DNA from: Thermodesulfovibrionales bacterium
GTDB lineage: Bacteria; Nitrospirota; Thermodesulfovibrionia; Thermodesulfovibrionales; UBA6898
Direction: 5' to 3'
Length of the DNA: 19,384 bases
Assembly (NCBI GenBank): GCA_044450345.1
Contig: JBIOIY010000057.1
Span: 1 to 19,384, forward strand
Part shown: positions 1-19,384 of the stretch, one piece after another
Layout: every line of letters begins with the position of its first letter
Numbering within the stretch: position 1 is the first letter of the stretch
Position numbers and translations under genes: made by a program
The notes under the pieces: generated by a model
What the model saw: only the letters and a program-made list of their open reading frames with translations
Database searches by the model: none
What the model was told of the DNA's origin: nothing

Positions 1-2
1 AA

Positions 3-92
3 TTTAAACGCGTGAACGGCTACAAGGAAATCCCAAAACTCATTGCTGCCTTGCAGCGAAAATCCATTGACAGAAAGGAGGCCGCAGCTTAG
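3..92 (+). CDS. C-terminal fragment of an IS256-family-like transposase (truncated by window edge)
   Basis: Manual translation FKRVNGYKEIPKLIAALQRKSIDRKEAAA* resembles the F(R/K)R(V/I)xGY..(L/I)P.L tail of IS256/Mutator transposases; followed by an IR-like end. Confidence 0.7.
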   Translation, partial: FKRVNGYKEIPKLIAALQRKSIDRKEAAA

Positions 93-111
93 GATATGAA
101 CCGGGGTCCTT

Positions 112-141
112 TCTACTTCAACGAAAGGACGGGACAACTTC
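112..141 (+). mobile_element. Putative right terminal inverted repeat of the IS256-like element
   Basis: TCTACTTCAACGAAAGGACGGGACAACTTC about 20 nt after the transposase stop resembles TTCAAC....CGGGACA ends of this IS group; the left end is outside the window so pairing cannot be confirmed. Confidence 0.5.
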
Positions 142-343: not shown

Positions 344-1279
344 TCAGGGTTTCTTATTAGGAGTGAACTCGATCGAAATCTCCCGTTCCGTCGTGATCTT
401 GAGTCCCTTGATCCCCTTCAAGACCTCCATCGTCTTTCGGTCGTCTCCCATAGCCTTTTCCATCTTCTCGCTCAATCCCTTGAAGCCCTTCTCGTCGGAC
501 AGAAGCGGATCGAAGTCGATATCCATCAGCGTGACCTTCGATCCTTCGACATACGGGCTGTTTGTCTTGACTACTTTGCCCTCGACATTGATCGCTATGC
601 CCATATGGAGGCCTTTGAACATCTGCATCATCATTGACATATTCTGGGCCGGCTCCCCCGGAGAAGCCGCAGCCGGCGGAGTGGCTGGTTGTTCTTTTGC
701 CGCATCCGGTTTGGGAGGAGGCAATACCACCGTGAGAACGGCGTTGCCGGTTGGCATGCGGGTGAACCTAAACTTCAGCGCGTCCTCAGAGGAAGCTCCT
801 GCCCCTGTCGTCCCCATCGCAGCGGCGGGCTTGGGGTTAACGGCCAGTTGATTTATGTCCTTGAAGGCATAGGTCACGCGGACGCCGGCTGCCGTCTTCG
901 TGTCGATTTCCTCCGCAGACACGAACGTGACGCCAGGCCCCAGGTCTGCAGCCTTGTCCTTGAGATCACTCTCCTTGAAAGGGCCCTTCCCCGAGGCCTT
1001 CGATGGCTTATTTTTTGTATCCTCTTTCGATTCGGTCGTTGCCGCTCCCATCTGCTTCGCTATCCCTTCCATCGATTCTTTTATCTGCTCCGGGTTCATG
1101 GTTATCGTCTGCACCATCGTCCCGCTTCCGTCACCCTTTACGTTGATCTGGGTCAGGAAGGTGATGCAGCCGGGGAGAGATATTGACACAGCCGCGATCA
1201 GCAAAACAGCTCCGATCCTTTTCAAAAATGTCTGACGGCCTACTGGAAATTGCTTTATTAACATGTAGAAGAATATCAC
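344..1279 (-). CDS. Hypothetical lipoprotein
   Basis: 311-aa ORF; basic N-region, hydrophobic stretch and lipobox LPGC, then 'INVKGDGSG' beta-hairpin as in LppM/DUF3153-like lipoproteins; Pro/Ala-rich linker. True start may be ATG at 1264. Confidence 0.75.
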   Translation of the reverse strand: MIFFYMLIKQFPVGRQTFLKRIGAVLLIAAVSISLPGCITFLTQINVKGDGSGTMVQTITMNPEQIKESMEGIAKQMGAATTESKEDTKNKPSKASGKGPFKESDLKDKAADLGPGVTFVSAEEIDTKTAAGVRVTYAFKDINQLAVNPKPAAAMGTTGAGASSEDALKFRFTRMPTGNAVLTVVLPPPKPDAAKEQPATPPAAASPGEPAQNMSMMMQMFKGLHMGIAINVEGKVVKTNSPYVEGSKVTLMDIDFDPLLSDEKGFKGLSEKMEKAMGDDRKTMEVLKGIKGLKITTEREISIEFTPNKKP

Positions 1280-12767: not shown

Positions 12768-14765
12768 CTAAATCGGGGTCCTCCCGCCGTCGAGCACTTT
12801 TCTGACCTCGTTTAAAAGAGTGTCCGGCGAGATAGGCTTTGACACGTAATTTATGGCCTCTTCGAGGATTTTTTTGTCTTGCAGAATGTTTGCTGAGTAA
12901 CCACTTATAAAGAGGGCTTTAATGTCGGGGTTCACTTGTCTGATTTCTTCGTAAGCCCGGTACCCGTTTTTCTTAGGCATCACTAAATCAAAAAGCAGGA
13001 AGTGTATCTTGTCCTTATTCTTGATAAACTCGGAGACTGCTTCCTCTCCGTCCCGTGCCTCTATCACCGTATATCCGTCCGTTTCGAGGATGCGCCTTGA
13101 AAGGCCTCTGACGCCTTCGTCATCCTCTGCGAGAAGAACGGTTTCACTGCTCCGGGATCTCTGCCTCTGTTCTGAACGGTTTCTTCCTTCCAGCCCTTTC
13201 TCCTCAACGAGTGTTTCATATAGGGGTAAATATATATTGAAGGTAGTCCCTTTCCCTATCTCGCTTTCAACCTCGATATAGCCTTCATGCTGCTTGACTA
13301 TCCCGTATGCCATAGCGAGACCGAGGCCGGTGCCTTTTCCGACTTCCTTCGTCGTGAAGAAAGGATCAAAGATCCGTTTCTTGTTTTCCTCGCTTATGCC
13401 CTCACCGGTATCAGAGACGGATAAGAGGGCGTAGCGGCCCGGCTTCTTAAAGCCTGCCTGCTCTTCTAATTCGATATATTCAGCTGCTATGGTGAGAACT
13501 CCTCCTCCGGGCATTGCGTCCCGCGCATTTGTGGTGAGGTTCATAAGCACCTGGTCTATCAGACCGGTATCTGCCATAATGACCAAATCCTTGTTGATAA
13601 GGCGCGTCCTGAATTCTATATCCTCGCTGATCAACCGCATAAGAATTTTCTCGACTGATAAGACGATGTCATTGATCTTTACCGGCTGGACTTTGATCAG
13701 CTGTTTTCTGCTGAAAGCCAGCAGGCTGTGGGTAAGCGTGGCCCCTTTCTCCACGGAATTCACTATTTGCTCCGCATAGGACTTTAATCGTTCGTCATGC
13801 TCAACCCCCATCCGTATAAGATGGCCATACCCCCCTATAGCCGACAGGATATTGTTAAAGTCGTGGGCGATTCCGCCTGAGAGGGTCCCGATTGCTTCCA
13901 TCTTCTGGGCCTGCCTCAGTTGTCCCTCTAACTGCTGTTTTTCCGTCTCCTTTTTTTTGAGTGAAGCCGCCATTTGATTGAAAGCCAGTGCAAGCTTCCC
14001 AATTTCGTCATTCGTCTCGACCCGGAGGGGTTCGACCGTTGATCCCTCTTCTATGGCCCGCACGCTTTCAGTCAGCTTGTCGAGCGGCCTCGTCACCTTT
14101 TTTACCATGAAATATAAGATAGCCGGGATGAAGGTAAGAAAGACCAGACATATAAAGATACCCTTTACTAAAAGAAGTGCTTGCTGTCTGTTCAGCATGC
14201 TTTTGTCCAAAACTATCCTTACGTAGCCTATCGTGCGTTTGACATTAGGATTGGCCTCGGGAAAGAACATGGACTCCTCGTTTGCGTAGGACAGCCCCGA
14301 AAGCACGGGGGTCCAGATCTCAAAAGTGTTCAGTGAATCCCTGTAGTAGAACTGTGCATGAGTTTCTCTCAAGTCCTTGAGAATCGGGGGGACCTGACTT
14401 TCATCCTGAGTCGGGTCTTCTGCCGTCCCGCTGCCACGTTTATTTTTTTTGACAAGAATTTTTCCTTCGGAGTTAAAGGCCGTCACGGAGAGGGTCTTTT
14501 TGTTTTCGAGATATGTCCTGAGGACGTCTTCCATGAGCGCCGTATTCTCGGAGAAGATACTAAGTCTCAAACTGTGAGCAACAAGCTGCGCGAACAGCTC
14601 GCCTTCATTCCTGATACCTTGTTTGAGGGTCCTGGTTTGTTCGTAAAGAAAAACTGCTGTGAAACTGATTGTGATGATTAAGATAAGAATAGTCAACCTT
14701 AGAAATACCTTTGTGCCGAAGCTCTGGCCTATTTTTCTCAAAGAACTGCTTAATTTCGCTTTCAT
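12768..14765 (-). CDS. Membrane hybrid sensor histidine kinase (periplasmic sensor-HAMP-HisKA-HATPase-REC)
   Basis: Two TM segments, HAMP (TRPLDKL...DEIGKLALAFNQM), H-box GGIAHDFNNIL, N-box NARDAM, G-boxes DTGEG/GTGLGL, receiver (LAEDD...DLVMP...KP). Confidence 0.95.
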   Translation of the reverse strand: MKAKLSSSLRKIGQSFGTKVFLRLTILILIITISFTAVFLYEQTRTLKQGIRNEGELFAQLVAHSLRLSIFSENTALMEDVLRTYLENKKTLSVTAFNSEGKILVKKNKRGSGTAEDPTQDESQVPPILKDLRETHAQFYYRDSLNTFEIWTPVLSGLSYANEESMFFPEANPNVKRTIGYVRIVLDKSMLNRQQALLLVKGIFICLVFLTFIPAILYFMVKKVTRPLDKLTESVRAIEEGSTVEPLRVETNDEIGKLALAFNQMAASLKKKETEKQQLEGQLRQAQKMEAIGTLSGGIAHDFNNILSAIGGYGHLIRMGVEHDERLKSYAEQIVNSVEKGATLTHSLLAFSRKQLIKVQPVKINDIVLSVEKILMRLISEDIEFRTRLINKDLVIMADTGLIDQVLMNLTTNARDAMPGGGVLTIAAEYIELEEQAGFKKPGRYALLSVSDTGEGISEENKKRIFDPFFTTKEVGKGTGLGLAMAYGIVKQHEGYIEVESEIGKGTTFNIYLPLYETLVEEKGLEGRNRSEQRQRSRSSETVLLAEDDEGVRGLSRRILETDGYTVIEARDGEEAVSEFIKNKDKIHFLLFDLVMPKKNGYRAYEEIRQVNPDIKALFISGYSANILQDKKILEEAINYVSKPISPDTLLNEVRKVLDGGRTPI

Positions 14766-14766
14766 C

Positions 14767-15663
14767 TCAGTTGATTCCCTTCCCCCGGAAAATGGTCTCG
14801 TTGCTGATGGGTCTCCCTATTTTTTTTGCCGTTATCTGATTTACCGTGACGTTGGCTTTCCGCGCATCAACACTTGGGATATCCGCAACATCGGCCCCCG
14901 ACAGGATCTTCTCTACCATTTCTCCGGCCTGCCTCCCGATATCTCTTGCATCTATATTTGCGGATATTACCGCGCCCATTGACAGGTATTTCTCCGAAAA
15001 GGTCATGACAGGTATCTTGTTCTCAAAGGAAAAGAGAAAGAGATATTCTACAGTCACGGGGGAGAAAACCGTTGAGTCGGGTATCATCCAGAACACGTCT
15101 ATTTTGTCTTTGAGACTGTTAATTTTCAAAGGAACATCCCTGGGATGATGGATTTCCTTCACAATGATCTTTATCGGCGTGTCCCTGGATGAGGCAAGTG
15201 CTTTTTCGACGAAGCCTCCGGATGTTAGAGGGTTGTAGAGAAGACCTACCTTGTGGAGGCCGGGGAAGGCCTCCTGGAGCAGAGACAACTGCTTTTTAGG
15301 CGCTATATTCATGCTGACACCCGTAACGTTAGCAGCCGCCAAGTATATAGATTCCGGGTTGGACACCATTGCATACACAATGGGAATATCTTTGATCGCT
15401 TTAAGTCCGAGAAGCGCGTTCGCCCCGACGGCCAGAATGACATCAGGCTTGGAGGAACGGATTTCTCTGAATATATTCAGCCCTTCCGCTTCTGAAAGGA
15501 CCAACTCCCTTACCGTGCAACGACATGTGTTCTTGAAGCCTTCGACCGCCTCGTTGTAAGGCCCTATCTTGCTGCTTTGGACTATGAGTACGCTCTTTTG
15601 GCCCGCATAGGCGTGTGCGAAGGTAAGGAAGAAAAGTAATATAAGTATTAAATACTTTTGCAA
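14767..15663 (-). CDS. Periplasmic substrate-binding protein (ABC_sub_bind-like), orphan from any ABC transporter
   Basis: Signal peptide ending AHAYA; type-I PBP pattern (PYNEAVEGF, VILAVG, NVTGVSM, VGLLYNP, IGRQAGEM, VNQITAKKIG); TTG start with GGGGGA RBS; stop 1 nt before the kinase ATG. Confidence 0.85.
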   Translation of the reverse strand: MQKYLILILLFFLTFAHAYAGQKSVLIVQSSKIGPYNEAVEGFKNTCRCTVRELVLSEAEGLNIFREIRSSKPDVILAVGANALLGLKAIKDIPIVYAMVSNPESIYLAAANVTGVSMNIAPKKQLSLLQEAFPGLHKVGLLYNPLTSGGFVEKALASSRDTPIKIIVKEIHHPRDVPLKINSLKDKIDVFWMIPDSTVFSPVTVEYLFLFSFENKIPVMTFSEKYLSMGAVISANIDARDIGRQAGEMVEKILSGADVADIPSVDARKANVTVNQITAKKIGRPISNETIFRGKGIN

Positions 15664-15763
15664 ATCAAATTTCCCCCGCTTGTAGACATGAGGCGATATT
15701 TCTTATATAGTTAGTTTAAACGCTGTAACCTTATAAGCAACTAAATACACTATATCAAACTTT

Positions 15764-17643
15764 ATGAACAGAGACCAATTAATAAAAAAAATAATGGCCC
15801 TCTGTCTTTTCGCCTTTTCTGTTTCATTTATCTCTGATGCCTGGGCACAGTCTGAAGATGAAATCAATACGCTCCGGATGTTCTACGAAGAGAAAGACCT
15901 CGTCGTGACTCCCACGAGGCATCTTAAGCCCACCTCCCACGTGGCCGAGAACATGACGGTCATCACCTCCGGTGATATCGAAGAGATGAACGCTCATACG
16001 CTGGCCGATGTCCTCTTTAACGTAACCGGCGTTCAGGTGGACTCACGGGGCGGCCCGGAAGCGCTGATACCGTCCGGATACAGGGCTCGGAATTCAGGCA
16101 TGCAATTGTGATAATCGATGACGTAACACTCAATAACCTTTCCGACAGCTTCGCCGATATTGCCGCTGTCCCTGCCCAGATTATCGATAGGATTGAAATT
16201 ATCAAAGGGCCGGCCTCTTCCGCATGGGGTTCGTCGCTGGGGGGAATAATCCACATTATAACAAAGGGTGGCGATGTATCACGGAAGGCAGGAGGAATGC
16301 TTTCTGCGTCTTACGGCGAGAGGAACACGGGAGATTACAGGGCTGAGGTTTCCGGGAAGGTGGAGAGTCTTTCCTATTACCTGTACGGCGGAAATCTTGT
16401 TTCGAATGGATTAAGGCCAAATACTCCTTTTTATGAGAACAATATTTATTCAAAATTTAAATGGGATGTCTCGTCAAAAGCCAACGTTGCCTTCACCTTT
16501 GGCTATAACCAGGGGACAAGGGGAGAGGGGCAGTATCCAGCCGTTGATCTCTCCTTCGGCAACGCCTTCGAGTATCTTTTTTCTACACTAGCCTTCAATT
16601 ATTCGCTGACCGATACCGCAGACCTTAATGCATCTTTGAGGACCTCACGTCAGCGTGCAGAACTCATCAATAACAGCCTCAGTACCGGTGAAATCCTATC
16701 AGACAGCAACATTGACGATAAGAGCAGCGGCGGGAGCCTCAAGTTCACATGGAAAAACAGCATTCATGATGTGGTCTCAGGCTTTGACTATGACTACGGG
16801 GAACTAGTGTCAAATAATATCACCGGCGGAAAACAGAGCCTTGGCAAATGGGCGGTATTTGTGAATGACACGATGACAGCCGCCAAGTTCGCCTTCACTC
16901 CAGGCATCAGGTATGATCACACAACCACAAACGGCAGCTTTGTGAGTCCAAGCCTGGGGGTGACCTATAATCTTGGTGAAAAAACGATGCTGAGAGCCGT
17001 CGGAGCAAGAGGGTTCAGTACCCCTCCCCTTTCGGCGACCTTCGGCACCGGGACCTTCTTTGTGCCAAACCCGGATCTAAAGATGGAGAAGGTATGGTCT
17101 ATGCAGGCCGGCATCGAATCAACTGGTCTGAAATACCTCTGGGTGAAGGCTACTGCGTTCAGGCATGAAATTACTGATGCACTTTTCAATGAGACCTTGA
17201 GTGACGGGACGTTTACGGCTGTCAACCAGGGAAGACAGAGGAGACAGGGATTCGAGTTCGAGTTGAAAACAGTACCGGTCTATGATGTCTCCCTTTCTGC
17301 AGGCGTTGCCTTTACCGATGCCACGGATAGAGATACCGGGGAAGTAGTGCAGGATATCCCCCGATATACTTATGATGTGGGGATCCATTACAACGACAAC
17401 AAATCGCTCAGGGCCTTGCTAAAGGGCCATTATATCTGGTGGAACACGGAGTCAGTAACCAATGCTCAGTATAACTCTATGATATGGGACCTCAGCCTCA
17501 CTAAAAAGATTTTTTCTTCCGGTAAGAGAAGCGTGGAGTTTTTTTTTACAGCCCATAATATCTTTAACGGCTCTCAATATGCGGTGGATGTCTTCAAGAA
17601 CCCCAGAAGATGGGTCGAGGCAGGACTGCGGCTTAAGATATAG
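15764..17643 (+). pseudogene. TonB-dependent receptor (BtuB-like plug + barrel) with a 1-nt frameshift near 16055-16058
   Basis: Signal peptide, VVTPTR, plug motifs (VITSGDIEEM, IDRIEIIKGPASSAWGS..GGIIHIITK), barrel motifs (PGIRYD, NPDLKMEK, HNIFN, PRR). Adding one base gives continuous RGGPGSADTVRIQGSEFRHAIVIIDD, about 626 aa. Confidence 0.88.
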
Positions 17644-17727
17644 AAATAGGAGATCGTCTCATTTTCGAAATATAAACGATAGGGCCTCCATTGGAGGCGT
17701 TCTGAGATCATATGAGAGGAGGAAAAG

Positions 17728-17826
17728 ATGAAAAAGGCGATAGTCGTCCTCAGCAAAGGGATAAAGGATTCAGCCGGCCCGACAGGTCTCTGCTGCTACT
17801 TGGCCTTCGTGCCGTTAAGGTGGTAG
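17728..17826 (+). CDS. 32-aa RiPP precursor peptide, geopeptide-like: MKKAIVVLSKGIKDSAGPTGLCCYLAFVPLRW
   Basis: Manual translation; strong GAGGAGG RBS; leader-like IVVLSKGI followed by a CC-containing core; lies immediately upstream of a radical SAM/SPASM gene. Absent from the ORF track because it is under 60 aa. Confidence 0.88.
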   Translation: MKKAIVVLSKGIKDSAGPTGLCCYLAFVPLRW

Positions 17827-17850
17827 GGCTAGGTTTAAGATTTACTCGAT

Positions 17851-17877
17851 GGGGGGAGACAACTCCCCCCCTTTTTT
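17851..17877 (+). terminator. Intrinsic terminator / attenuator between peptide and maturase
   Basis: GGGGGGAG-ACAA-CTCCCCCC perfect 8-bp stem followed by C and T6. Confidence 0.8.
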
Positions 17878-17885
17878 CAAAGGCA

Positions 17886-19187
17886 ATGCAATTATCCAGA
17901 TATATTAAGACATATACGTATGAAGGTGATCCCGACTACCTGGTTCTTTATTCCACCAGGCGGGCATCGACGATCCTCCTGCCTAAGACCGCGCTTGAGC
18001 AAATAGAAAAGGGAGAACTGGAGCCTTCTGACCAGGAAGTTCTTTTTGATCTCGGGTTTTTGGTCCCTGACAGGGATGAAGAAAAAAAGGAGATGCTCGG
18101 TCTTATTGATGTCATTAACAAACGTGCGAGAAGATTCAATGCCATTGTGGTTATGAACCTCGACTGTAACCTGCGCTGCACCTATTGCTATGAAGGAAAC
18201 ATGAAGGGGGAGCGCTATATGTCCGCCGAGACCCTCGGGCTTCTGGCAGATTTTCTCGAAAAACATGCCCTTTCTCGGGGCAAAGACGTACATATCGATT
18301 TCTACGGCGGCGAGCCCCTCTTAAGCTTTGATGATATCAGGAGGGTCTCTGAGAGGCTGAAATCGTTATCTGCAGGTCGGGGGCTCACGTACTCCTTCAA
18401 TCTCGTGACAAACGGGACCCTGTTGACGCGGGCCAGAACAAAGGAGCTTGCAGCCCTGGGAATGAAGAGTGCAAGAATAACGCTCGATGGTCCAAAGGGT
18501 AACCATGATGCCTTCAGACCCTTCAAATCCGGGAGCGGGACCTTTGAAACGATCGTAAAGAACATCAGGGATGTGTATGATATCCTGAGCATCCAGATCG
18601 GCGGAAACTATACCCAGGAGAACTACACGAGGTTTCCAGAACTCCTTGATTATCTCATCGCAGAGGGTCTTTCGCCGGACAAGTTTCTCATCGTCAAATT
18701 TGATCCCGTCGTAAAGCCGGGGGGGAGGTTTGCACTTCCGGAATTCAGGGACGGCAGCGAATCGATCAATGAGCCCTGGATATTCAGGGCCACCCTTTTC
18801 CTTAGAGAGGAGATCCTTAAGCGGGGCTTCAAGACCCCTAAAATCCTCCCCTCCCCTTGTATGATAGGGCTGACGAATGATGTTGTGGTGAATTATGACG
18901 GGACGATCTACAAATGCCCCGGGTTTATCGGGTGGGAGGGGTTCGAGGCCGGTGATCTCAGGACAGGCATGGCGGATATTGAGGGGTCTCATGCCCTTGA
19001 TATCTGGAAGAACGAGCAGTGCCTCGACTGCGAATACCTGCCGCTCTGCTTTGGGGGATGCAGGTTTATGAAGGTCCTGAGAGACGGAAACATTCACGAG
19101 ATCGATTGCAAAAAGCCTTATCTGGATGCAACACTTGAGACCCTTGTCGGACAGGACATAAAATACATGCCGGAGACCGGCGATTGA
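17886..19187 (+). CDS. Radical SAM/SPASM peptide maturase (geopeptide maturase-like)
   Basis: CNLRCTYC (18165-18188), FYGGEP, VTNG, ITLDG; full SPASM motif C-x13-G-x4-C...C-x2-C-x5-C-x3-C-x15-C; ~85-aa N-terminal RRE-like extension. Start reassigned to ATG 17886 (MQLSRY), 433 aa. Confidence 0.93.
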   Translation: MQLSRYIKTYTYEGDPDYLVLYSTRRASTILLPKTALEQIEKGELEPSDQEVLFDLGFLVPDRDEEKKEMLGLIDVINKRARRFNAIVVMNLDCNLRCTYCYEGNMKGERYMSAETLGLLADFLEKHALSRGKDVHIDFYGGEPLLSFDDIRRVSERLKSLSAGRGLTYSFNLVTNGTLLTRARTKELAALGMKSARITLDGPKGNHDAFRPFKSGSGTFETIVKNIRDVYDILSIQIGGNYTQENYTRFPELLDYLIAEGLSPDKFLIVKFDPVVKPGGRFALPEFRDGSESINEPWIFRATLFLREEILKRGFKTPKILPSPCMIGLTNDVVVNYDGTIYKCPGFIGWEGFEAGDLRTGMADIEGSHALDIWKNEQCLDCEYLPLCFGGCRFMKVLRDGNIHEIDCKKPYLDATLETLVGQDIKYMPETGD

Positions 19188-19384
19188 TCACGACGAATGA
19201 AAGGAATCTCCGCATATTCACGAGTGTGAGCTCTATCTGGGCTGTTGTCATGGGATTCATCGGCCCTTTTTATGTGCTTCAGGTCGCGAAGCTCAGCGGC
19301 GGGGTGGAAAAACTCGGTTTGGCCTTCAGTATAATGGTGCTGCTCCAGGCGGCTACTACCTATATTGTCGGCGGCTACTCCGAT
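19184..19384 (+). CDS. MFS transporter, N-terminal part (runs off the window)
   Basis: TTG start overlapping the rSAM stop (TTGA); MITTNERNLRIFTSVSSIWAVVMGFIGPFYVLQVAKLSGGVEKLGLAFSIMVLLQAATTYIVGGYSD gives two TM helices and the start of MFS motif A (G..SD). Confidence 0.75.
   Translation, partial: MITTNERNLRIFTSVSSIWAVVMGFIGPFYVLQVAKLSGGVEKLGLAFSIMVLLQAATTYIVGGYSD

Follow-up and report, generated by a model that had tools for sequence, protein, structure and literature searches.

The geopeptide system is known from the NCBIfam/TIGRFAMs collections, where it has been defined by comparative genomics as a pair of models, TIGR04229 ("geopeptide", 22 positions, cut-off 30 bits) for the peptide and TIGR04280 ("geopeptide radical SAM maturase", cut-off 400 bits) for the enzyme. 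Among the better described enzymes of the radical SAM/SPASM type, the first auxiliary cluster of CteB reportedly has one site free to take a Cys of the substrate, according to the structure paper of 2017. In the field of signalling, LuxP/LuxQ represents a binding-protein-dependent hybrid kinase. For PapB and Tte1186, X-ray spectroscopy has placed the cross-linking Cys (as Sec) on an Fe of an auxiliary cluster before the S-C bond is made, as stated in PMC10177961. Methanobactin, as outlined in PMC7558416, is served by an exporter (MbnM), a TonB-dependent importer (MbnT), and the periplasmic MbnE, and the product is exported, loaded, and re-imported. No paper on the chemistry or role of the geopeptide family was found among open-access PMC papers and bioRxiv preprints, which is consistent with the opinion of an earlier note on this DNA that the chemistry is uncharacterised. 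In PMC4289311, Geobacter comes up only in connection with lasso peptides, and the strings Geobacter, TIGR042, TonB, and Nitrospir are all absent from PMC10288494.

The DNA analysed here (the window) is a stretch of 19,384 nucleotides on contig C57 of a Thermodesulfovibrionales bacterium, the genome of which (G000) comprises 86 contigs and is 91% complete with a contamination estimate of 1.94%. It holds a short unannotated gene, the product of which is very probably the precursor of a RiPP of the geopeptide type. The pairing of this gene with a radical SAM gene that starts 59 nt further on the same strand can be proposed with still greater confidence. The features of the cassette around this pair are collected in Table 1.

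Table 1. Predicted genes and sequence elements of the window.
Feature	Positions	Strand	Remarks
Hybrid sensor histidine kinase	12768–14765	-	HAMP, HisKA, HATPase, and receiver domains; directly downstream of the binding-protein gene
Periplasmic binding protein (PF04392)	14767–15663	-	Signal-peptide-like N-terminus; divergent from the receptor gene
TonB-dependent receptor	15764–17643	+	Split into 15764–16111 and 16108–17643; frameshift near 16048–16057
Small hairpin	17684–17698	+	GCCTCC-ATT-GGAGGC; in the 84-nt gap between receptor and peptide genes; invariant columns in four close copies
Shine-Dalgarno sequence	17718–17722	+	GGAGG; 5-nt spacing to the start codon (ATG, 17728); invariant in four close copies
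Precursor peptide gene	17728–17826	+	32 codons and stop; profile E 3.5e-9; frame-specific purifying selection; family architecture
Terminator-like hairpin with T-run	17851–17877	+	8 pairs, 7 of them G-C; loop of 4; between precursor and maturase genes
Radical SAM/SPASM maturase, 433 aa	17886–19187	+	TIGR04280; invariant Cys columns; CteB match
MFS efflux-type transporter, gene start	19184–19384	+	Begins with a TTG that overlaps the stop codon of the maturase gene; incomplete at the window end

The precursor gene had been proposed in the earlier note as a hidden ORF of 32 codons with its own ribosome-binding site, masked in a different frame by an over-extended radical SAM ORF. The same ORF was recovered by a profile for which 24 peptides were taken from other genomes, with the four peptides of this genome and the two nearest look-alikes (L011 and L046) left out. 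The search space consisted of 88,747 stop-to-stop ORFs of at least 20 aa in six frames of the whole genome. Exactly four ORFs matched at E values of 8e-10 to 2e-8, the next best ORF having an E value of 0.057, and each of the four directly precedes a different one of this genome's four TIGR04280 paralogues. The ORF in the window scored 38.2 bits (E 3.5e-9). Selection of the coding type was also seen in this frame alone. Pairwise counts among four close copies, which are small with only 32 codons to compare, gave pN/pS values of 0.2–0.75 in the peptide frame, about 0.7–1.4 in one of the two other frames, and 1.5–9 in the frame of the supposed enzyme extension. At the protein level the peptide is the fastest-changing product of the cassette (pN 0.08–0.15). 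When these copies are aligned, conservation is seen in the ribosome-binding site, the reading frame of the peptide, the stem of the hairpin, and the first codons of the enzyme. The exact peptide sequence is absent from about 15 billion predicted proteins. For positions 17300–18600, all the 20 matching sequencing runs listed are of DNA, with shares of at most 0.11, and no RNA run is among them. The comparative sequence evidence confirms the ORF as a real unannotated gene and more than a chance ORF.

The listed ORF that covers the peptide gene runs in another frame from 17712 to 19187 (+ strand, 491 aa). It is open in this copy, as it would have to be if the short ORF had arisen by chance and the true start of the enzyme were 17712, giving it an N-terminal extension of 58 residues. 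However, stop codons close the extension frame in the three closest copies (C7, C67, and G004), its pN/pS exceeds 1.5, and the significant profile match belongs to the peptide frame. Moreover, a G+C-rich terminator-like hairpin with a T-run sits within the supposed extension, and model position 1 of TIGR04280 aligns with the Met at 17886. Owing to the start of the model, the stops in close copies, the hairpin inside the extension, and a coding signal confined to the peptide frame, the 17712 start is rejected, and a genuine extension is next to impossible. The true start of the predicted maturase is 17886, and the masking of the peptide gene by an over-long ORF, as first suggested, holds on all four points.

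The hairpin between the peptide and the enzyme deserves attention on its own account. A hairpin followed by a T-run occupies this place in 29 of 39 loci with unrelated sequences, and in the four close copies the stem is kept while the loop varies. As the folding energy is ordinary in comparison with shuffled sequences (z -0.71), the support for this element lies in its recurrence. It would act as a leaky terminator that sets the ratio of precursor to enzyme. A short ORF followed by a terminator-like hairpin 25 nt on, recurring in so many loci, is at the same time the classical layout of an attenuator. The peptide could then be a functionless regulatory leader, in which tandem Cys codons and the terminator attenuate the radical SAM gene by the supply of Cys-tRNA. 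This is countered by conservation at the amino acid level over the whole peptide, including leader, spacer, and tail, which extends across phyla despite the divergence of the DNA. The fold of 17827–17885 consists of the terminator-like stem and a weak upstream stem with no anti-terminator, and the ORF lies outside the folded stretch. Furthermore, the hairpin is missing from 10 of the 39 loci, one locus (L031) has two tandem peptide genes, and the downstream enzyme is of peptide-modifying families. Attenuation is thus a highly improbable explanation, and a precursor peptide with a leaky terminator behind it is preferred.

The small hairpin ahead of the peptide gene has a centroid energy of -10.7 kcal/mol with a z-score of -1.2, which is not significant. 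It is a candidate RNA 5' end, processing site or protein-binding site. No Rfam family reached its gathering score in the window, and the best match at 17400–18000 (E 0.19) is not credible. Control by sigma-54 was considered and rejected as well. The pattern TGGCAC-N5-TTGCW with up to three mismatches gave 51 matches in the window against 67.7 expected. Additionally, GG-N10-GC (up to three mismatches) was absent upstream of the receptor and peptide genes in the window and in 12 of 13 loci, the sole match being a 3-mismatch site in L056. Sigma-54 activators are encoded nearby, and no sigma-54 promoter ties them to the peptide gene.

The enzyme that follows the peptide can be placed firmly. The predicted maturase scores 617.3 bits with TIGR04280 (E 1.4e-185), and from the start at 17886 its residues 1–427 align with model positions 1–427 of 428. 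On this side the geopeptide link, which the earlier note had suggested, is borne out. The CxxxCxxC motif (C94/C98/C101) is invariant in 14 maturases. The same holds for seven Cys in the SPASM region (C325, C344, C379, C382, C388, C392, and C408), which include a CX2CX5CX3C run. Among Pfam models, Radical_SAM matches with 52.4 bits and SPASM only with an E value of 0.054, under its gathering score. The next NCBIfam models after TIGR04280 are TIGR04463, CefB, PapB, the nif11-peptide maturase, Clo7bot, the SCIFF maturase, CcpM, and QhpD. These are mostly maturases named for Cys-rich or thioether peptides, and all of them are far under their cut-offs. For instance, the PapB, SCIFF, and QhpD models match at E values of 1e-26 to 1e-38, with 130 bits against a cut-off of 340 for PapB and 107 against 425 for the SCIFF maturase. 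The closest solved structure is that of CteB (PDB 5WGG), which is reached at E 2.4e-33 with a profile and is aligned by the single sequence over residues 90–394. With regard to signs of an RRE, the N-terminal region gave no match to Pfam PqqD, its profile had no PDB match better than E 0.98, and the Atlas offered a weak lead to a PqqD cluster (rank 26, score 0.90). The neighbouring peptide is most likely modified by this enzyme.

Pairs of this kind are not restricted to the window. Four TIGR04280 genes over the cut-off occur in the genome, on contigs C57, C7, C67, and C9, and a short Cys-Cys ORF is located just upstream of each. Among 41 related genomes, this one included, TIGR04280 is matched in 21 at E <= 1e-60 and in 20 over the cut-off, and when 301 genomes were sampled from the phylum, the corresponding numbers were 40 and 32. 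A conserved short ORF ahead of maturase homologues, which had been named as a check on the proposed precursor, is present in 25 of 30 loci of the relatives. The remaining five loci comprise one with masked bases (L016), one with 35 nt upstream (L020), and three partial matches (L029, L036, and L037) that begin only at model position 125–134. A scan of one genome per species found maturase relatives in MAGs labelled Nitrospirae/Nitrospirota, Thermodesulfovibrionales, Geobacteraceae, Desulfuromonadales, and Desulfobulbia, and in Geotalea toluenoxydans. Of the 80 public loci listed by the scan, the 17 closest were examined, 16 of them with the N-terminus of the enzyme. The Cys-Cys ORF was present in 15 of these 16, the exception (L048) having 47 nt upstream.

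From 1.84 billion representative proteins, a profile built on 17 peptides gathered 110 clusters at E <= 1e-3. Their representatives are all 30–77 aa long and have CC in 110 of 110 cases, an invariance which is partly built in, as the profiles were made from CC peptides. The leader is a hydrophobic strand ending in Gly. From this Gly to CC the spacer measures 10 residues in 72 of the 110 and 9–12 in all, and the tail after CC has 7–10 residues in 99. Within the tail, G stands at CC+2 in 55 of 110, A, G or S at CC+3 in 88 of 110, P at CC+6 in 46, and R or K at CC+8 in 58 of 101, while K or R is found among the last four residues in 93 of 110. An aromatic residue occurs in the core of only 46 of the 110. 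The predicted precursor of the window consists of a leader (residues 1–11, MKKAIVVLSKG), a spacer of 10 residues, Cys22-Cys23 as the Cys-Cys that is invariant in the family, and a tail of nine residues (YLAFVPLRW) which conforms to the family consensus. The partition into leader, linker, and core that had been read from the single sequence fits the family alignment. By these features, the predicted peptide clearly belongs to a wider geopeptide-like family.

Membership of the curated peptide family is a separate matter. TIGR04229 gave no match to the peptide of the window at E <= 10, and in a search of the whole genome only the C9 peptide was listed, at 17.3 bits. When the model was run on 40 peptides, one passed (from Geotalea toluenoxydans, 40.5 bits), 11 scored 11–20 bits, and 28 gave nothing. 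The suggested link to TIGR04229 therefore fails for the curated model and stands for the wider homologous family. In the NCBI records, the Geotalea peptide is named "geopeptide", and other peptides of the family are "hypothetical protein" or unnamed. As the model passes one peptide in 40, naming based on TIGR04229 leaves most such precursors outside Geotalea/Geobacter without a name. The geopeptide system has already been named in databases, and the predicted precursor of the window is a newly found member of it.

The family also bears on the chemistry of the modification. The earlier note had suggested cross-links from the two Cys to aromatic residues of the core, alongside thioethers. A Cys-aryl or cyclophane link cannot be the conserved chemistry of the family, because an aromatic core residue is present in only 46 of 110 members and CC in all. 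A thioether formed from Cys stays the best guess, and thioether cross-linking of geopeptide-type precursors is given a likelihood slightly under one half. A link to a backbone carbon or to the carbon of a small residue would fit better with the variable tail. Apart from CC, no tail residue is invariant, and conservation therefore does not single out an acceptor residue.

The peptide may alternatively be a true substrate of a conserved chemistry other than thioether formation. This could be a C-C or C-O cross-link, an epimerisation, or the excision of a Cys-Cys-derived cofactor or metal ligand that is imported by the TonB receptor, and PqqE and MftC make small molecules from peptides in a comparable manner. 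Such alternatives would suit a core in which CC alone is invariant, and PqqU, a PQQ-importing TonB receptor family of NCBIfam, shows a weak match to the cassette receptor. The reactions of SPASM enzymes are many, as described in PMC10114670. However, the nearest characterised relatives of the maturase by sequence (CteB, PapB, the SCIFF maturase, and QhpD) are all Cys-thioether synthases. Likewise, the length of the tail and the small residue at CC+3 are conserved, which suggests that the tail matters. Such other chemistry is considered unlikely. Thioether formation is retained in the mechanism that follows.

In the proposed mechanism, precursor and maturase would be made from one transcript, on which the leaky terminator hairpin keeps the peptide in excess. 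The N-terminal domain of the maturase (residues 1 to about 88) would then bind the conserved leader, that is, the hydrophobic strand followed by Gly. The fixed spacer of about 10 residues would put Cys22-Cys23 at the active site. There, a core Cys would bind to the auxiliary Fe-S cluster as in CteB, Tte1186, and PapB, and the 5'-deoxyadenosyl radical would take H from a residue of the short tail. One or two S-C thioethers would result, with a loss of 2 Da for each.

Beyond the precursor and the maturase, the cassette contains a receptor, a binding protein, a kinase, and a putative pump. In G004, a relative of the same genus, the receptor orthologue is intact with 636 aa, and the orthologue of the MFS gene matches MFS_1. 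The window's own receptor copy is frameshifted, a point against the explanation proposed here. A stretch of the window (14702–19384) is about 90% identical to C7 1–4685 and C67 237–4900. Among these three copies, dN/dS amounts to 0.13–0.19 for the maturase, 0.10–0.13 for the receptor, and 0.24–0.29 for the binding protein, at dS values of 0.2–0.5, and all the cassette genes are thus under purifying selection (0.10–0.29). Strain mixture was considered as the source of the three cassettes and rejected, the flanks of C57, C7, and C67 being unique in the bin, and for this reason the cassettes are read as paralogues. With the contamination estimate given above, a mixed bin is a less likely source of them. 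The fourth copy, on C9, has the order receptor, peptide, enzyme, binding protein, kinase, and sigma-54 response regulator.

The association of these genes is close. The genome encodes four receptors of this subfamily, four binding proteins, four peptides, and four maturases, always together in the four cassettes, and PF04392 has one further, distant copy beyond them. The kinase adjoins only two of the four cassettes (C57 and C9). Among the 41 relatives, which are kin and not independent, the receptor was found in 21 of 21 maturase-positive and 3 of 20 maturase-negative genomes. Of the 17 public loci, 13 have the receptor, 11 the binding protein, and 10 the kinase, with flank length as the limiting factor. 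Two relatives (G025 and G026) have receptor, binding protein, and kinase without peptide or maturase. The ligand of the module need not be the peptide, as these genomes keep the three genes alone. The receptor was also considered as one of the Cys-selenocysteine motif type, which was rejected, the NCBIfam matches being sub-threshold only. For the cassette kinase, LuxQ, TorS, and VirA-like models are among the sub-threshold matches, and none reaches its cut-off. Neither a protease nor a motif for leader cleavage could be recognised in the cassette.

As the last step of the proposed mechanism, the product would act outside the cytoplasm. The MFS pump would export it, and the cognate TonB-dependent receptor would return it to the periplasm, where sensing would fall to the PF04392 protein and the hybrid kinase, with the product serving as a signal or a metal carrier. 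Whether the product is an extracellular ligand of the receptor/sensor module is an evenly balanced proposition. A more far-reaching view, which is offered tentatively and is unlikely to hold as a whole, would regard geopeptides as ligands made by oxygen-independent radical SAM enzymes in anaerobic bacteria of the Nitrospirota/Geobacter type. They would be exported, re-imported by a private TonB-dependent receptor, and sensed by a dedicated binding protein and kinase. In this capacity they might be signals that the cell makes for itself or, for settings that are sulfidic and poor in metals, metal carriers of the thiol/thioether type. The genome described here would then run four channels with four cores, and G025 and G026 would be listeners or pirates.

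These results have consequences for annotation and for further work. The peptide gene was missed in this genome, and the start of the maturase was called 174 nt too early. The geopeptide-type family is widespread, extending over genomes of the Nitrospirota phylum, Geobacteraceae, Desulfuromonadales, and Desulfobulbia, and it combines an invariant Cys-Cys target with a genomic link to an importer of the outer membrane and a sensor in the periplasm. This linkage raises the testable question of what anaerobes do with a modified peptide that is apparently taken back up. Possible outcomes are a new thioether topology on adjacent Cys and, in bacteria that cycle iron and sulfur, a route for signalling or metal uptake that is based on a peptide. 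The present analysis adds a peptide wholly missed by the curated model and found in no public protein set searched, as well as a single genome with four cassettes, in each of which one receptor, one binding protein, one peptide, and one enzyme are strictly paired. It further adds estimates of the selection acting on the individual parts, and the receiver-only modules of maturase-negative relatives.

Compared with known systems, the closest likeness is to the geopeptide system itself, of which the predicted maturase of the window is a full-length member. The Geotalea geopeptide and the peptide of the window have in common their size, the leader motif, the fixed spacer, Cys-Cys, and the place just upstream of the maturase. 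They differ in that the window peptide is missed by TIGR04229, has a tail of the CC-x-x-A-F-x-P-L-R-W type, and comes from a Nitrospirota-type genome with four cassettes instead of a Geobacter. CteB, Tte1186, and PapB, which act on SCIFF/ranthipeptide and sactipeptide precursors, are likewise radical SAM/SPASM enzymes with the same cluster motifs, and the Cys of their substrates lie in a short core next to the leader. Unlike the substrates of these enzymes, with six Cys or CxxxD repeats, the peptide of the window has two adjacent Cys and the family tail of 7–10 residues. As in methanobactin operons, the gene of a small ribosomal peptide that contains Cys is accompanied in the cassette by those of an efflux pump, a TonB-dependent receptor, and a periplasmic binding protein. 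However, Pfam and NCBIfam scans of the cassette revealed radical SAM, TonB receptor, PF04392, kinase, and MFS families and none of the MbnB/MbnC-type enzymes that accompany the precursor MbnA. The modifying enzyme is instead an oxygen-independent radical SAM protein, and the binding protein, which belongs to PF04392 and does not resemble OppA, has a sensor kinase coupled to it. This coupling recalls LuxP/LuxQ, in that the gene of a periplasmic binding protein abuts that of a hybrid histidine kinase, whereas the module of the window additionally includes a TonB-dependent receptor.

The TonB-dependent receptor gene of the window's cassette is made up of two frames, of 115 and 511 aa, whereas its orthologue in a genome of the same genus (G004; 636 aa) and the copies on two further contigs of the same assembly, C7 and C67, are unbroken. 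Since the C-terminal part of the split gene still has a dN/dS of 0.10, the break is read either as a recent lesion or as an assembly error among copies that are roughly 90% identical.

The MFS pump gene that belongs to the cassette may be broken or repeated. The window's contig, C57, and contig C7 stop at an identical position within this gene, another piece of it lies at the start of contig C3, and the corresponding region of G004 is divided between an ORF of 194 aa and one of 155 aa. The opposite end of the window carries a repeat that is 100% identical to the beginning of contig C35, placing it at contig ends in both. The remaining genes of the window encode a malic enzyme, a fumarase, an outer-membrane/ABC-2/HlyD efflux set, an ABC-F protein, and a CvfB-like protein. 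A 311-codon ORF, also in the window, matches no Pfam family at E <= 0.001.

Upstream of the peptide gene, a 6-bp hairpin (GCCTCC-ATT-GGAGGC) stands 30 nt before the start codon. It is invariant across the four close copies of the cassette, and the adjacent DNA has a 14-nt indel. In the alternative gene order, typified by contig C9, a sigma-54-dependent response regulator follows the kinase, with 61–71% identity across loci. Despite this regulator, no sigma-54 promoter was found upstream of the receptor or peptide genes.

Coordinates of the features discussed
Feature	Contig or locus	Position (strand)
Repeat shared with first 141 bases of C35	window	1-141
311-codon ORF	window	344-1279 (-)
TonB-dependent receptor, split	window	15764-17643
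Receptor break	window	near 16048-16111
Hairpin	window	17684-17698
MFS-gene piece	window	end, 19384
MFS-gene piece	C7	1
MFS-gene piece	C67	1-437
MFS-gene piece	C3	2-265
MFS-gene piece	L039	8087-9160
Sigma-54 response regulator	L041	11289-12632
Sigma-54 response regulator	L042, L044, L045, L050	
Tandem precursors	L031 (G008:C70)	1094-1258; 1290-1421
Lys/Ala/Thr-rich leader	L014, L022, L023, L025, L026, L034, L035, L044, L050	

Two loci in related genomes, L122 (G025:C10) and L123 (G026:C64), arrange receptor, PF04392 binding protein, and kinase as in the cassette; neither the Cys-Cys peptide nor the maturase is present there, and TIGR04280, the maturase family, was not found in either genome. 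The precursor itself varies among loci. At one locus in the relative G008, a single maturase is preceded by two precursor genes in tandem, whose leaders are nearly identical and whose tails differ slightly. At nine loci, the precursor leader upstream of the maturase bears a long, Lys/Ala/Thr-rich N-terminal extension, giving total lengths of 38–92 aa with the layout of Gly, spacer, and CC retained. This extension resembles histone H1, and NCBIfam histone H1-like models match these precursors, but under the cut-off.
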